A stretch of DNA of 64,000 nt from Oscillospiraceae bacterium (GTDB taxonomy: Bacteria; Bacillota; Clostridia; Oscillospirales; CAG-272): contig SVRE01000004.1 of assembly GCA_015065005.1 (NCBI GenBank), positions 1,922 to 65,921 of the forward strand, written 5' to 3'. The notes beneath the pieces were generated by a model, which ran no database searches, was not told where the DNA came from, and was given only the letters and a program-made list of their open reading frames with translations. Made by a program: the position numbers and the translations under genes. Positions 4,852 through 30,952 of this stretch are shown here, piece by piece; the first letter of the stretch is position 1; each line of letters opens with the position of its first letter.

Positions 4852-5445
4852 ATGATAAAAGTAGTTTTAGCAACAAGAAATAAGAATAAAATTCATGAGC
4901 TCAGAACTTTTTTTCGCGAGCTTTCTGATTTAGACATAACCGTATTGTCACTTGATGATATAGGCTATTATGGTGAGATTGAAGAGTGCGGAAATACATT
5001 TGAGGAAAATGCAATTGCAAAGGCATCTGTTCCTGCAAGGCTTGGCTATATTGGAATAGCTGATGATTCCGGCATTTGTGTTGATGCTTTAGGTGGCGCT
5101 CCCGGCATTTATTCTGCACGCTTTTCCGGCGGTGATGATGAGGCCAATAATGATCTTTTGCTTCAAAAGCTCGAGGGAGAAAGTGAGCGTGGAGCGAAGT
5201 ATGTATGTGCAATGGCTTGTGTTTTTCCTGACCATTCAAAGGATTTCACTGTACGTGGCGAATGTTATGGTAAAATATTGACCGAAAGACATGGGGATGG
5301 CGGCTTTGGATATGATCCGCTGTTCTATTATGAGCCTTTTGGTAAAACCTTTGCCGAAGTAGATTTGGCAAAGAAAAACAAGGTTAGTCACAGAGGCGTT
5401 GCAATGAGAAGCTTTATTAAAAAAATATCGAAGGTGTTATCATGA
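4852..5445 (+). CDS. rdgB: dITP/XTP pyrophosphatase (Ham1/RdgB family)
   Basis: ATRNKNKIHEL N-terminus plus FGYDPLF and SHRG motifs. 197 aa. Confidence 0.9.
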   Translation: MIKVVLATRNKNKIHELRTFFRELSDLDITVLSLDDIGYYGEIEECGNTFEENAIAKASVPARLGYIGIADDSGICVDALGGAPGIYSARFSGGDDEANNDLLLQKLEGESERGAKYVCAMACVFPDHSKDFTVRGECYGKILTERHGDGGFGYDPLFYYEPFGKTFAEVDLAKKNKVSHRGVAMRSFIKKISKVLS

Positions 5446-14681: not shown

Positions 14682-15454
14682 TGAGATTAGATTTATATTT
14701 GTTCCAGAAAAATTATGTTAAGAGTCGGCAAAAGGCAAAAAGCCTGATTGAAGAAGGCAATGTAAAATTGAATGGAAAGACAATTTTAAAGCCGGCTTTT
14801 GATGTCGATAACAGTGATGAAATTTTTGTGGAAATAATTGATAGCTGTCCTTATGTTTCAAGGGGTGGGCTAAAGCTTGAAAAAATTATAGAAATGACAA
14901 AGGTTGATATTAAAAATAAGGTTTGTCTTGATATAGGCGCATCTACCGGTGGATTTACACATTGCTTGATATTAAACGGTGCAAAAAAGGTATATGCGGT
15001 AGATTCTGGAACTGATCAGCTTGCCAAATTGCTTAAAGAGGATGAGCGTGTCGTTTCAATCGAGAATTATAATGCTCGCGACTTAAATATTCAAGATATT
15101 GGCGAATATGTAGATGTGATAACCATAGATGTGTCTTTTATTTCTCAATGCTTGATATTGCCGTCAGCATGCAAGCTGTTAAAGGATGACGGGATTTTTT
15201 TAAGTTTGATTAAGCCGCAATTTGAAGCGGGTCGACCAAATATCGGCAAGGGCGGAATTGTGAAAGACAAAAAAGCACGGCTGCACGCAGTAAATAATGT
15301 ACTTGAATGTGCCGGGGCGAACATGCTTATTTGCACTTCATTTTCAAAATCTCCAATCGAGGGAGGAGATGGAAATGTTGAATATCTTGCTGCTTTTTCA
15401 AAGTTTGGCAAACCGATAAACGAAGATTTAATTAAAAAGATTGTTTTAGAATAG
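14681..15454 (+). CDS. tlyA: TlyA-family rRNA 2'-O-methyltransferase
   Basis: N-terminal S4-like domain and SAM-binding motif DIGASTGGFT. The start overlaps the ispA stop (ATAATG). Confidence 0.9.
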   Translation: MRLDLYLFQKNYVKSRQKAKSLIEEGNVKLNGKTILKPAFDVDNSDEIFVEIIDSCPYVSRGGLKLEKIIEMTKVDIKNKVCLDIGASTGGFTHCLILNGAKKVYAVDSGTDQLAKLLKEDERVVSIENYNARDLNIQDIGEYVDVITIDVSFISQCLILPSACKLLKDDGIFLSLIKPQFEAGRPNIGKGGIVKDKKARLHAVNNVLECAGANMLICTSFSKSPIEGGDGNVEYLAAFSKFGKPINEDLIKKIVLE

Positions 15455-15466
15455 TAGGAGATGGGT

Positions 15467-15913
15467 ATGAAACCAAAGAGACAAGAAAAAATATTAGAGA
15501 TTATTGCTAATAATAACATTGAGACTCAAGAGGATTTAATCAGTGCGTTAAGAAGTGAGGGCTTTAATGCTACTCAGGCAACTGCTTCACGTGATATCAG
15601 ACAGTTAAAGCTTGTTAAGGTGCTTGATAACGGAGTATATAAGTACGTGGCGCCTAAAAATGATAACGATAAAACAGGTACATACAATCACGCATTATTT
15701 TCTTCAATTACTGACATTAAATACGCTTTAAACAATGTAGTAATTAAAACTAATCCCGGTTTAGCCCAGGCTGTTGCTGCCGGAATTGACACTTTGCATG
15801 ATGTTGATATTTTAGGATGCGTTGCGGGCGATGACTGTATAATACTTGTATCTGCATCTGAAGAAGCAAGCAAGAATATTACTAACAAAATATCTAAAAT
15901 TGCGGGTAGATAA
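15467..15913 (+). CDS. argR: Arginine repressor
   Basis: RQEKILEII...TQEDL...TQATASRDIRQLKL wHTH and C-terminal GCVAGDDCIILV. AGGAG lies 6 nt before ATG 15467; the track start at 15461 is less likely. Confidence 0.92.
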   Translation: MKPKRQEKILEIIANNNIETQEDLISALRSEGFNATQATASRDIRQLKLVKVLDNGVYKYVAPKNDNDKTGTYNHALFSSITDIKYALNNVVIKTNPGLAQAVAAGIDTLHDVDILGCVAGDDCIILVSASEEASKNITNKISKIAGR

Positions 15914-27456: not shown

Positions 27457-28797
27457 ATGGCACTTAAATTAAATAATAAATTTATTGAAAAATTTGTAAG
27501 TAATGAAGATATAGCTAATATTTCTGCAGAAATATATGAGGCACAAAAGCTTTTGGCATCACGTACCGGCGAAGGAAATGATTTTCTCGGTTGGGTTGAC
27601 TTGCCTGTAGATTATGACAAAGAAGAATTTGAAAGGATCAAGAAGGCTGCAAAGAAAATTCAAAGTAGTTGTGATGTTTTCATTGTTATTGGTATTGGCG
27701 GATCATATCTTGGCGCAAGAGCGGCAATTGAATTTGTTAAATCTCCTGTCTATAATAATATTCCAAACAAGGACACACCGGACATTTATTTTGCCGGTAA
27801 CTCAATAAGCGCTTCTGCCTTGAATGATCTTCTTAAGATATGTGAAGGCAAGGATGTTTGTGTGAATGTTGTATCTAAATCCGGTACAACAACTGAGCCT
27901 GCTGTTGCGTTCAGAGTATTCAGAGCTCTTTTGGAAGAAAAGTATGGCAAGGACGGAGCAAAGGAAAGAATTTTTGCTACAACAGATAAAGCAAAGGGTA
28001 CTTTGAAGAAGTTTTCTGATGAAAACAGTTATGAAACCTTTGTTGTTCCCGATGATGTTGGCGGAAGGTTTTCTGTTCTTACAGCTGTTGGTCTTTTGCC
28101 AATTGCTGTTGCAGGAATTGATATTGATTTAATGATGAAGGGTGCTCAGGACGCAAGAATTGCTTATTCCGGCTCTGACATTAATACAAACGATTGCTTA
28201 AAGTATGTTGCTATCCGTAACATTTTGTACCGTCAGGGAAAGAGTGTTGAGATTTTGGCGGCATATGAGCCTGCAGCGCAGATGCTTTGCGAATGGTGGA
28301 AGCAGTTGTATGGTGAAAGTGAAGGAAAAGATGGCAAGGGTATTTACCCAAGCTCAGTTATTTTTTCAACTGACTTACATTCATTGGGTCAATTTATTCA
28401 GGATGGTTCAAGAATTATGTTCGAAACTGTCCTTGACATAAAAAAGGCAAATGATGAGTTGTTGATTCCTTTTGATCCTAACAATGTAGATAAGTTAAAC
28501 TTCTTGTCCGGCAAGGATCTTGATTATGTTAACCATACAGCGATGCTTGGTACTTTGTTTGCTCATTCTGACGGTAACGTGCCAAATATCGTACTTGAAC
28601 TTAATGATAGAAGCGAATATTCCTTCGGATATTTGATTTATTTCTTTGAGTTGGCTTGTGCAGTATCAGGTTACACGCTGGGTGTTAATCCATTCAACCA
28701 GCCCGGAGTTGAAAGCTATAAAAAGAATATGTTCGCGCTTTTGGGTAAGGAAGGTTACGAAGAGTTGAGAGAAGAGCTCAACAAGAGAATTAAATAA
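27457..28797 (+). CDS. pgi: Glucose-6-phosphate isomerase
   Basis: 446 aa with [21 protein letters not shown] and [10 protein letters not shown] motifs. Confidence 0.95.
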
Positions 28798-28803
28798 TTA
28801 AAG

Positions 28804-28832
28804 AGGTCTGCGTTAATTTGCAGACCTTTTAT
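28804..28832 (+). terminator. Intrinsic terminator of pgi
   Basis: AGGTCTGC-gttaattt-GCAGACCT followed by TTTT. Confidence 0.8.
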
Positions 28833-28914
28833 GTTTAAACTAATTTTTTTAGGTGAATATAATTAAAAAAGTAGAAAAAAATCGAAAAATATTAGATATT
28901 TTTCACAAAACCTA

Positions 28915-28943
28915 TTGATTTTTTGATAACTGTAGTGTATAAT
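28915..28943 (+). promoter_or_regulatory. Sigma-A type promoter of the mini P-loop gene
   Basis: TTGATT, a 17-nt spacer, then TATAAT. Confidence 0.6.
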
Positions 28944-28981
28944 TAAATCAGAAAGAAAAAGATATTGTGGAGGACAACAAT

Positions 28982-29389
28982 ATGATGAAGATTATCATCG
29001 GTGTGAAAGGCACTGGCAAAACAAAAACGCTTATCGAGATGATAAATTCCGCACTGGAGACCTCAAAGGGTTCTGTAGTGTGTATCGAAAAGGGCGACAA
29101 TTTAAGATTAACACTTAATTACAATTGTAGACTTATCAATTCTGATGAGTATATGATAAATGATGCACAGTCACTATACGGATTTATAGCTGGATTGTTA
29201 GCAAGTAACCACGATATCACGGATCTCTTTATAGATGCTACATTTAGAATTTGTAACAGAGATTTGGAAGCTTTCGATAAATTTGTTGTAGAAGCTGACA
29301 GTTTAGCCGCTAAAAATGACGTTAATTTAGTTATGACGCTTTCAATGCCTGTTGAAAACGCAACAGATAACATTAAGAAGTATCTCTAA
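28982..29389 (+). CDS. Orphan mini P-loop NTPase (135 aa), function unknown
   Basis: Walker A GVKGTGKT at residues 7-14 and a candidate Walker B DLFID. GGAGG lies 8 nt before ATG 28982; the track GTG at 28967 sits inside that RBS. Confidence 0.7.
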   Translation: MMKIIIGVKGTGKTKTLIEMINSALETSKGSVVCIEKGDNLRLTLNYNCRLINSDEYMINDAQSLYGFIAGLLASNHDITDLFIDATFRICNRDLEAFDKFVVEADSLAAKNDVNLVMTLSMPVENATDNIKKYL

Positions 29390-29611
29390 TCTAAATTATA
29401 GCGGTAAGTCCTGTGTGCAACATTTTAAACTAACAAAATTTTAAGAATGTTGAGTGAGGATGGGCCAATGAACGATTTATCACGTTTTAAAAGCTGATTA
29501 CGGAAATGGTAATATACGGCACATGTTATTAATATAACAAATGGGTAAATAAAGGTCGAGAAATGTTCGAGTTCGCAGTAATCAGTTAATCTGAGATTTT
29601 AAATGTTTTTT

Positions 29612-29806
29612 GTAAACTGGGGTGTTGCTATGTTCACAAAATATCATTTGCTTGAAATCTGAGATATGAGAGGATAAACCAATGTACTAATTAATTTACT
29701 TCAAAATTAATTGAATGAGGTATTTGCTATGTTAAGTTTCTTTATTAAAGAAATTTTAGAAAAACGAGGGCAATCCAATGTATGATTTAATTTGAAATAA
29801 ATATTA
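29612..29806 (+). repeat. Two diverged tandem copies of a ~97-nt unit (29612-29710 and 29711-29806)
   Basis: Both units share TTGCTATGTT and GAAAT.T.AGA. GAGGATAAACCAATGTACTAATTAATTT aligns with GAGGGCAATCCAATGTATGATTTAATTT at 22/30 identities by hand alignment. A further partial copy lies at 29456-29485. Confidence 0.6.
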
Positions 29807-29966
29807 AGCTGAATACGAGAATACACAAGGTTAAATTAGGTGATTATCCGATGCAAAATGAAATTTACGCTAAAAAGTATTTCTTGAATAATAAGTGTTT
29901 AACTAATACCTGAGTGTTGTTCGTGTAGTTTATATAGATTGATGTACATTTTTAATTAAATATATG

Positions 29967-30000
29967 GGAATCCAACTGCGCGTGTTGGGTTCCTTTTTTT
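29967..30000 (+). terminator. Strong intrinsic terminator ending the ORF-free transcript
   Basis: GGAATCCAAC-tgcgcgt-GTTGGGTTCC (10 bp including one G-U pair) followed by 7 T. Confidence 0.85.
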
Positions 30001-30018
30001 ATAAGTTGACTTTATATG

Positions 30019-30045
30019 ACATAATTTTATTCAATGCATATGATA
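30019..30045 (+). promoter_or_regulatory. Sigma-K-like (late mother-cell) promoter candidate
   Basis: AC (30019-30020), 16 nt, then CATAtgaTA (30037-30045). This matches the B. subtilis sigma-K pattern AC-N16/17-CATAnnnTA, 55 nt upstream of the ATG. Confidence 0.4.
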
Positions 30046-30100
30046 ATAAGGAAGAAGTCTTTTTGAAGCATCTTCAAAAATAATAGGAGGTTATTACCTT

Positions 30101-30952
30101 ATGTTGGATAATAAATTTTGTTCTTCCCAGCATCAAAAGGAAAACATATGCATAGACACATATAGAGTTTTGGATTCCTGTCGAGATAAAGACTGTTTCG
30201 AAAACGTTAGAGTGTATTTAACAGATTTTGGTGAAGAAATTATCGACCGTACATCAATAATCAGAGCTAAATGTGCCAAAATAGTGTCAGCTTACATTGA
30301 TATCAATGATGTTCCATTTAATAGAGGGTTTTATCAGCTTAATATCAAAATGTACGTGAAGCTTGTATTTGAAGCATGTATTTCACAGGGAAATATTCAA
30401 GAATTTGATGGTATTGCTGTTGTAGAGAAGAAGGTTATTCTTTACGGTAGTGAAGGAAATGTAAACGTCTTTAAGAGCGAGCAAAATGCATCTGGATTTT
30501 GTAATATAAAGCCATGTGAAGGTAGTTGTTCAAATAATTTACCGACTGCAGTGCTTGAAACAGTTGACCCAATAATACTGAATGTTAAGGTAGTAGAACC
30601 AAGGGCTTTCCCGTGTTGTTGCTGCTGTTGCATTGATGATATACCTGATTTTGTTTATAACCATATTAGCGGTAAGCTCTGCGATAGAGGAGATAAAGCA
30701 TTAGTTGTATCTCTCGGATTTTTCTCAGTAGTAAAAATTGAAAGACCTACTCAACTGATAGTTAACGCTACTGAATACAATATTCCTGATAAAGAGTGTA
30801 CAACAGCGCAAGAGGATGATCCTTGTACCTTATTTAAAGCTATGGCTTTTCCTGTAAATGAATTTTCACCGCCTACACTTGATACCTGTGCTTGTTCGGT
30901 TCAATTAATGAAACAAGACAGAGAGAAGGGAAAGGGCTGCGGTTGTAGTTAA
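30101..30952 (+). CDS. Cysteine-rich protein (22 Cys in 283 aa, CCCCCC run), possibly a spore coat or exosporium component
   Basis: GGAGG RBS. Cys count from the translation; hexa-Cys is encoded at 30614-30631; the C-terminus reads KGKGCGCS. No family recognised. Confidence 0.7.
   Translation: MLDNKFCSSQHQKENICIDTYRVLDSCRDKDCFENVRVYLTDFGEEIIDRTSIIRAKCAKIVSAYIDINDVPFNRGFYQLNIKMYVKLVFEACISQGNIQEFDGIAVVEKKVILYGSEGNVNVFKSEQNASGFCNIKPCEGSCSNNLPTAVLETVDPIILNVKVVEPRAFPCCCCCCIDDIPDFVYNHISGKLCDRGDKALVVSLGFFSVVKIERPTQLIVNATEYNIPDKECTTAQEDDPCTLFKAMAFPVNEFSPPTLDTCACSVQLMKQDREKGKGCGCS

Follow-up and report, generated by a model that had tools for sequence, protein, structure and literature searches.

In a 64,000-nt stretch of the Oscillospiraceae bacterium contig SVRE01000004.1 (positions 1,922 to 65,921 of the forward strand; the whole stretch is called the window below), the roughly 570 nucleotides (nt) between the stop codon of a 135-residue P-loop gene and the terminator of that gene carry an element made of ordered pairs, each a Shine-Dalgarno (SD) motif plus a start codon. 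Comparison with relatives indicates that the RNA is strongly structured, with two or more domains that long-range helices showing covariation close, a folding that the preliminary description of this region had missed. The modules, each consisting of GAGG, 8 nt ending in CCA, and AUG, sit between and inside these two helix-closed domains. The reading favoured here, though held tentatively, is that of a structured 3' untranslated region (3' UTR) which would engage ribosomes and link the fate of the RNA to translational activity.

Eight SD-like/start pairs had been listed in the preliminary description, and all eight were recovered at the same coordinates with spacers of 5-8 nt. The mini open reading frames (ORFs) of 9, 8, 10, 2, 18, 5, 20, and 1 codons that they open were reproduced with identical peptides. 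No ORF of at least 60 amino acids occurs on either strand of 29390-30000, and no terminator intervenes before the one confirmed at 29966-29994, which is followed by a T-run. The stretch had been called G-poor and is actually C-poor, with 10.6% C and a G content of 18.8% that matches the window mean of 19.0%. The excess of SD-start pairs over chance held in 2000 dinucleotide-preserving shuffles: seven strict SD-N5-9-ATG pairs lie in 29390-29966 against 0.77 ± 0.87 expected, an approximately 9-fold excess, and none of the 2000 shuffles reached seven. With the looser SD-start definition used earlier, nine pairs compare with 1.78 in shuffles. In related loci totalling 1.1 Mb, this element alone has clusters of at least three GAGG-N6-9-ATG modules with short ORFs, with one exception. 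This exception is found at 15359-15567 of the window, where three GAGG-N6-9-ATG sites with short ORFs are probably out of frame inside a coding region.

Six of the eight pairs, named A, B1, C1, B2, C2, and D, recur in this order in about 12 related lineages, while relatives do not conserve those at 29551/29563 and 29912/29923. All of them lie on the forward strand. Module A (29456-29497) has the SD GAGGA at 29456, CCAATG at 29465-29470, and a 9-codon ORF whose TGA at 29495-29497 lies in the 5' strand of helix P1; its motif GGAGG-N8-AUG with CCAAUG is kept in 12 lineages. Modules B1 (GGGGTG at 29619, ATG at 29630, peptide MFTKYHLLEI, stop at 29660-29662) and C1 (GAGAGGA at 29668, CCAATG at 29679-29684, ATG-TAC-TAA ending at 29690) lie within a first repeat unit at 29612-29710. 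A second unit at 29711-29806 holds B2 (GAGG at 29717, ATG at 29729, an 18-codon ORF after loss of the B stop codon) and C2 (GAGGG at 29766, CCAATG at 29775-29780, five codons). Module D (29838-29913) starts with AGGTGA at 29838 and CCGATG at 29848-29853, and its 20-codon ORF passes through hairpin P5 to a TGA at 29911-29913. Both non-conserved pairs fall within helices of the conserved structure. The first (29551-29589), AAAGGT with ATG 29563, opens the mini-ORF MFEFAVIS inside domain 1 and is absent at the same place in most relatives; the second (29912-29928), GAGTG with GTG 29923, lies in the 3' strand of helix P4, and its start site is not conserved.

The comparison covered about 12 distinct element-bearing lineages with P-loop proteins 81-98% identical; a metagenome scan gave few close relatives, and further lineages were obtained through exact-protein look-ups. 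Their shared plan runs from module A (GGAGG-N8-AUG, CCAAUG) over structured domain 1 to module B (GAGGUGUUUCUAUG) and module C (GAGG-N5-CCAAUG-UAC), and continues with the 5' strand of P4, module D (GAGGU-N6-CCAAUG), P5, the 3' strand of P4 with the box GCAGUUUAUAUAGAUU, and the terminator. The SD, its spacing, and the AUG are invariant across these lineages, while spacers and ORF lengths vary, with 9-16 codons in ORF A and 2-12 in ORF C. The only loss of an ATG, in module B of locus L204, replaces it by GTG and so keeps a start codon. The earlier claim that the architecture and not the peptide is preserved therefore stands for the SD-spacer-AUG arrangement and the varying ORF lengths, and does not stand for micro-ORF B, which has peptide-level constraint. 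The number of modules ranges from 1 to 7 between lineages, and the RNA described here presents four to seven.

At four-fold sites of pgi and the P-loop gene, identity between the window and the element-bearing lineages was 0.40-0.57, which is near saturation. The module cores are invariant in all lineages despite these near-saturated synonymous sites, and the elements of the window and L001 are 78.6% identical over 621 nt, against only 57% at four-fold sites of the flanking genes. By this measure the element is under purifying selection, which rules out neutral junk.

The first structured domain (29487-29592) was delimited with the covariance model R1 and pairing tests. Its helix P1 is predicted to pair 29492-29501 with 29578-29587, helix P2 pairs CGGC (29517-29520) with GTCG (29555-29558), and a conserved box, GTTATTAATATAAC, occupies 29525-29538. 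The closing stem consists of two parts with 15-20 bp, and its sequence differs among lineages while complementarity is kept. P1 reads CUGAUUAC/GUAAUCAG in the window, GUAAAUUC/GAAUUUAC in L005, GUAAGUUC/GAACUUAC in L171, and GGUGAAU/AUUCGCC in L008; P2, in our reading, takes the forms CGGC/GUCG, CGGC/GCCG, CAGC/GCUG, CAAC/GUUG, CGAC/GUCG, and AGAC/GUCU. Matches to R1 were obtained at E = 5e-8. In the covariance-model alignment, 79.5% of cells were paired and the covariation score was 0.388, compared with 69.0% and 0.213 in shuffles, respectively, and none of 500 shuffles reached either value. Nine of the 13 pairs changed on both sides, and sliding the 3' partner by 1-3 columns as a control gave scores of 0.05-0.15. 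Duplex energies per lineage were -10 to -22 kcal/mol against -4 to -8 in shuffles, with 0 of 300 shuffles reaching the observed value in 8 of 12 lineages. Model R1 identified no second copy of domain 1, and none in the variant loci L010, L178, L200, and L211 or in L030/L033.

A second domain (about 29795-29941), delimited by minimum free energy (MFE) and duplex tests and by RNAalifold, is predicted to be closed by P4, with its 5' strand within 29795-29831 and its 3' strand within 29909-29941. It encloses module D and hairpin P5 (29877-29909), and the box GTAGTTTATATAGATT (29925-29940) forms part of the P4 3' strand. The MFE and duplex tests gave p ≤ 0.012 in 8 of 11 lineages, with p = 0.03 for the window and 0.03-0.06 in the window group. 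RNAalifold recovered P4a independently in seven lineages with two pairs changed on both sides, for example GCACGA/UCGUGC versus GCAUGA/UCAUGC. The evidence for this domain is weaker than that for domain 1. Pairing between the boxes of the two domains was considered and rejected, since the covarying partner of box 2 is the P4 5' strand (in L005, UAUGUAAAU with GUUUACAUA). On MAFFT alignments the registers of the variable helix strands slip, so that covariation counted by column fails there and understates both domains. In its place, the analysis relied on an alignment to the covariance model, on duplex tests made lineage by lineage and compared with shuffles, and on RNAalifold runs over closer subsets. 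Covariation, which the preliminary description had proposed to test, was seen as compensatory changes in P1, P2, and P4. G-U pairs in the helices point to the forward strand as the folded one.

The diverged tandem copies of about 97 nt described earlier at 29612-29710 and 29711-29806 were recovered with 65% identity, compared with 50% in shuffles (maximum 60%), and a 44-nt core, spaced by 96, has 73% identity. Tandem Repeats Finder reported no tandem array and missed both units. The single B+C unit present in L004-L008 aligns with unit 2. Set against the relatives, the repeat is a true duplication of the B+C unit: it is duplicated in the window and L001, has a decayed second copy in L002, and is present in single copy in the other lineages. 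It is a lineage-specific duplication and not the organising principle of the element. A near-palindrome, AUCUGAGAU, was observed twice, at 29589-29606 before B1 and at 29654-29666 at the end of ORF B1, and the two copies pair with each other in the single-sequence MFE fold. It is probably specific to the window, because the upstream copy is absent from L001.

ORF lengths of 2-20 codons are uninformative alone, because the base composition gives an estimated stop every ~11 codons. In ORF B, 26% of the differing codons are synonymous in frame versus 12 and 7% out of frame, the three codon positions have diversities of 2.98, 3.08, and 4.87, the third being most variable, and indels are in frame. 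This coding-like pattern suggests a peptide of 9-10 residues, approximately M-[FLI]-x-K-[YF]-[HY]-[LI]-L-E-I; the ORF is extended or altered in the second copy of the window, L161, and L204. For ORF D the synonymous share is 21% in frame versus 7 and 9% out of frame, a signal that is ambiguous because the conserved part coincides with hairpin P5, and with P4. At the end of ORF A, the conserved "...VNF*" corresponds to the P1 5' strand; what looks like conservation in the terminal parts of peptides A and D is largely owed to the helices P1, P4, and P5. Among ORFs A-D, a coding-like substitution pattern is suggested for micro-ORF B only, and the codon counts are suggestive and not proof because the compared lineages are related. 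Both ORF B and the retention of stop codons speak rather for real translation.

CCAAUG is kept in modules A, C, and D across lineages, with D of the window reading CCGATG, and a GG..CC mini-stem is predicted in module D. Real gene starts of the window genome show AGGAG(G) followed by an A/U-rich spacer, and CCAAUG occurs in 0 of 34 inferred starts; judged by these starts, the modules are not generic ribosome sites. An origin of the modules by copying from the start of a neighbouring gene was dropped, as the only real start with GGAGG..CCAATG seen near a P-loop gene belongs to an XRE-type regulator in L028 and looks coincidental.

In a distant clade represented by L030 and L033 (P-loop identity 61%), an array is found in the corresponding gap on the opposite strand with its own TTGAAA-17-TATAAT promoter. 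It is laid out as an independent RNA gene on the minus strand (4480-5215 in L033; 4405-5300 in L030) whose four to six AGAGGU-RYAYU-CCAA(UG) modules stand 52-58 nt apart. ORFs of three codons (MKT*/MRI*) start at three of them, with stops retained as UGA/UAA. Modules without an AUG are identical in L030 and L033 while the spacers differ, a pattern that leans towards function as binding sites. A 10-residue ORF, MKLDFKSEQK, shows synonymous differences only and runs into a 13-bp hairpin.

A third variant occurs at L010 2677-3240, L178 2909-3480, in L200 and L201, and at L211 1909-2100. It keeps C-type modules (MYD*, MNN*, MYYFDLTSTVDI*) on a different structured core, in which a UUAUCGAA...UUCGAUAA stem surrounds a hairpin that varies by locus (AAGGU/ACCUU versus GGUUU/AAACC). 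L211 carries a minimal version with one module. In all three element types a long closing helix takes up the stop of a short ORF in its 5' strand, namely ORF A in P1, MYYFDLTSTVDI in the UGAUAU helix, and MKLDFKSEQK in the 13-bp hairpin.

Under the favoured reading of a ribosome-engaging 3' UTR, 30S or 70S particles would load on the modules and translate the 2- to 20-codon frames. Bound or terminating ribosomes may shield the RNA from 5'-exonuclease and endonuclease, as on the Bacillus subtilis yrzI and hbs mRNAs, and would melt the closing helices, with the stop of ORF A in the P1 5' strand and ORF D running through P5 to the P4 3' strand. With shielding and melting combined, the conformation and lifetime of the RNA would track translational activity. 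Expression of the P-loop protein, or a trans-acting role of the folded domains, could then follow that conformation and lifetime, giving the element a presumptive sensing role. Frame B appears to yield a conserved peptide of 9-10 residues in addition.

Several observations weigh against this reading. Predicted accessibility is 0.44 for the modules and 0.43 for the rest of the RNA (p = 0.5). Folded singly, neither strand has an unusual energy (z-scores of -1.0 and -1.6), so the structure is shown by comparison between lineages. ORF A, with 3.5% synonymous differences in frame, has no coding signature. The invariant CCA before the AUG is no feature of real ribosome sites in the genome and is unexplained by SD pairing, and three of the six modules in L033 lack a correctly placed AUG yet keep GAGGU...CCAA. 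The distribution is patchy and narrow, and the element is dispensable because many close relatives lack it.

It is possible, if rather doubtful, that the element is instead a sponge or decoy for a sequence-specific factor distinct from the ribosome, such as an RNA-binding protein or small RNA (sRNA) of initiation regions that binds GAGG-N5-CCA(AUG). The structured domains would then act as scaffold or stabiliser, and module copy number would set the titration capacity. Such a factor would account for a CCA that is absent from real start sites, for the AUG-less modules conserved between L030 and L033 with diverging spacers, and for a module number of 1-7 by lineage with a recent B+C duplication in the window; the occurrence of the array in either orientation, with its own promoter in L033, and the mini-stem predicted in module D agree with it as well. 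However, the SD-to-AUG spacing lies at the optimum for initiation, the ATG-to-GTG change retains a start codon, and ORF B looks coding. The motifs are also not of the CsrA type, in which A(N)GGA stands in a loop, as several modules read GAGGG or GAGGU and contain no GGA.

The sponges CsrB and RsmZ are structured non-coding RNAs with many SD-like motifs of species-variable copy number, which titrate a regulator of initiation regions. The element resembles them as a structured RNA with many SD-like motifs of varying copy number; it differs in its motif, GAGG-N5-CCAAUG with a start codon at initiation spacing, where these RNAs have hairpin loops that present A(N)GGA. The modules are built on GAGGA, GAGGG, or GAGGU cores, and no conserved local hairpin surrounds them in the B+C alignment. 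To our knowledge, no Csr-type sponge RNA is known from Firmicutes, and a literature search for a bacterial "ribosome sponge" RNA found none.

Along the same lines, the element could represent an RNA class not described before, a scaffold with start-region mimics (GAGG-N5-CCAAUG) acting in trans as a decoy for 30S subunits, initiation complexes, or a regulator of start regions, which we regard as conceivable and somewhat speculative. Equally speculative is its elaboration, in which module duplication would tune the copy number and the RNA would be encoded either as a 3' UTR or, as in L030/L033, as an independent gene.

We consider it unlikely that the element is mainly a micro-peptide operon, in which the peptides matter, chiefly B (approximately M-F-R-K-Y-H-L-L-E-I) and perhaps D, and the structure serves stability or coupling only. 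The coding-like pattern and in-frame indels of ORF B, the in-frame synonymous share of ORF D, and the purely synonymous changes in the 10-residue ORF of L030/L033 all fit this idea, and the small-peptide operon yrzI/spyTA offers a precedent (PMC12067863). ORFs A and C, however, are conserved in neither length nor sequence, as seen from the codon range of C and the low synonymous share of A, and the conserved part of D is P5 and P4. ORF B is itself extended or altered in three places, and the codon statistics come from related sequences that are not independent. We also know of no stand-alone role for peptides of 2-10 residues lacking a signal sequence.

Control of the downstream Cys-rich gene by a leader or attenuator, in which micro-ORF translation governs read-through of the terminator at 29966-30000, is very improbable. 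Micro-ORFs do precede an intrinsic terminator and a same-strand gene, and ORF stops do sit in helix strands, but the Cys-rich gene has its own conserved promoter 3' of the terminator, a pair also present in element-free loci. No antiterminator or alternative pairing with the terminator stem was seen, changes in the terminator are unmatched upstream, and the L030/L033 array is directed away from the Cys-rich gene.

That the element is non-functional DNA, either a decaying pseudogene or the product of neutral slippage or duplication of a start-site fragment in an intergenic hot spot, is suggested by its patchy, dispensable distribution, the recent tandem duplication in the window, and the unrelated genes that the gap hosts in L010 and L013, but is hardly credible given conservation far above that of four-fold sites in the flanking genes, compensatory base-pair changes, module cores invariant across lineages near synonymous saturation, and the lack of any translated match to the genes that occupy this gap in other loci. 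The pseudogene version, named in the preliminary description as an outcome that would overturn its claim, was examined and rejected: the gap genes of L010 and L013 are unrelated (tblastn E ≥ 0.4), and no gene was called in the gap of any element-bearing lineage.

Among known systems, the nearest likeness to the favoured ribosome-engaging RNA is the B. subtilis yrzI (spyTA) mRNA, along with hbs, in which ribosomes at very strong SDs block RNase J1 and stabilise the RNA (PMC12067863). Stabilising SD (STAB-SD) sequences are related to these cases. Like the yrzI mRNA, the element would be a Firmicute transcript of a few hundred nt with several very short strong-SD ORFs and a structured 3' end. All modules of the element have conserved GGAGG or GAGG cores, 8-nt spacing, and a micro-ORF context. 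The yrzI peptides are 17-52 amino acids long with shown toxin or antitoxin roles, whereas the frames of the element mostly have 2-16 codons and no peptide conservation. For the invariant CCA-AUG motif, the repeated paralogous modules, and the long-range domains with covariation, no counterpart is known from yrzI or hbs, and the element shares no sequence similarity with them.

The bar minigenes of phage lambda combine a strong SD and a start codon with a stop after 0-2 sense codons. Minimal ORFs at start-stop sites in Escherichia coli bind ribosomes and can modulate expression (10.1101/520783). Both resemble the modules in their strong SD, start, and near-immediate stop; ribosomes bind such minimal sites without making a useful protein. 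They are, however, single sites in genes or phage regions, whereas the element is an ordered array on a conserved structured RNA, and only module C and the L030/L033 modules are as short.

With OLE, ROOL, GOLLD, and raiA the element shares a size of ~0.45-0.6 kb, a Firmicute host, and a covariation-supported multi-domain fold; it differs from them in having no Rfam match, a very narrow distribution, a position in a 3' UTR, and initiation-like modules. Type III toxin-antitoxin systems (ToxI-like) likewise have tandem RNA repeats, with a terminator closing the array shortly before a protein gene. The units of the element are, in contrast, heterogeneous (65% identical) and not identical ~36-nt repeats, and the Cys-rich gene has its own promoter, has no toxin or defence match, and is kept by relatives without the array. 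RNAs that are structured, carry short ORFs, and load ribosomes through SD sequences are known in general; what is new within this kind is an ordered array of start-site mimics that has an invariant CCA and is set in covarying domains.

The earlier statement that OLE, ROOL, GOLLD, raiA, tmRNA, RNase P, 6S, and riboswitch cores are not recognisable agreed with a search of the whole window and 15 homologous loci against Rfam 15 (4227 families, ribosomal-protein leaders among them), which gave no match at gathering thresholds. At permissive E-values the window returned only noise matches to small nucleolar RNAs (snoRNAs) and sRNAs (E = 3-8, far below gathering scores). Searches of phage and plasmid collections with blastn and a two-module pattern scan of viral contigs were also empty, so a mobile or phage origin is unsupported.

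If the modules truly capture ribosomes or an initiation-site factor, the element would be the first RNA in bacteria whose design is an array of start-site mimics. A conservative reading still adds a covariation-supported RNA of ~0.5 kb from uncultured gut and rumen Clostridia. The element further provides a clear case of ORF stops placed in the strands of long closing helices together with a candidate micro-peptide of 9-10 residues, and its peptides A and D illustrate how seeming micro-peptide conservation can be a by-product of RNA helices. General importance is limited, because the distribution is narrow and the element dispensable.

The window belongs to an uncultured gut or rumen member of the Clostridia, and its relatives are metagenome-assembled genomes labelled Clostridia, Eubacteriales, or Oscillospiraceae; the genomes are fragmentary. 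In the window, the ORF list places the 135-residue P-loop (Walker-A) gene at 28982-29389 on the forward strand, with the element as its 3' extension. A promoter scan found a sigma-A-type promoter, TTGATT-17-TATAAT, at 28915-28943 of the same strand, which likely drives the whole transcript including the element. Between 29390 and module A, a promoter and terminator scan found no promoter-like site or terminator, and none is internal to the element. The intrinsic terminator (29966-30000, forward strand) has an 11-bp stem, a 7-nt loop, and a T-run, and its stem-loop at 29966-29994 with the T-run is the sole terminator-like site on the forward strand within 28700-30300. Compensatory changes occur in its stem in relatives (GGGAATTCGGA/TCCGAATTCCC, GGGAACTTGT/ACAAGTTCCC). 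This terminator ends the transcript of the P-loop gene, and the element lies upstream of it. The simplest reading is that of a long 3' UTR of ~570 nt, which would be co-transcribed with the P-loop gene.

The gene order dacB - pgi - 135-residue P-loop - gap - 283-residue Cys-rich is kept in scores of loci, in line with the synteny check suggested in the preliminary description. The gap measures 125-175 nt in many lineages, where it contains the terminator, the promoter, and the Cys-rich leader only, and 460-715 nt in the clade of the window; in L010 and L013 it is occupied by unrelated genes. Since the gap varies in this way among loci, the element is placed between the P-loop stop codon and the terminator of that gene, and loci without the element have only terminator and promoter at the corresponding place. 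The P-loop family comprises 3962 homologues, almost always directly after pgi. Searches of Pfam, NCBIfam, and PDB sequences gave this family neither a Pfam or NCBIfam model nor a relative of solved structure, and Pfam, NCBIfam, PADLOC, and PDB sequence searches with the flanking proteins returned Walker-A-level matches only and no functional lead. The Cys-rich protein matched no toxin or defence model.

The promoter of the Cys-rich gene (30016-30045, forward strand, ATGACA-N-GCATATGATA) is a sigma-70-like match conserved in loci with and without the element; it lies outside the element and marks its 3' limit. The surrounding upstream region of the Cys-rich gene at 30016-30100 is kept regardless of element presence (also, for example, in L012, L014, and L082), and consists of ATGACA, ~16 nt, and GCATAnGATA, which matched a sigma-70-like pattern. 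In our own reading it could also fit the sigma-K-type pattern AC-N16-CATAnnnTA, which suggests late-sporulation expression of the Cys-rich (CCCCCC) protein, possibly a spore-coat protein. After the promoter, a leader hairpin of the form GAAGACGAC...GTCGTCTTC was observed, which reads GAAGAAGTC...GAAGCATCTTC in the window. Between the P-loop and Cys-rich genes lies an insertion hot spot, which hosts small membrane proteins, an XRE-type regulator, or other genes depending on the lineage. Examples are found at 3230-3640 in L010 and at 4852-5262 and 5437-5664 in L013, and the gaps in L049, L060, and L061 extend over 2-3.7 kb.

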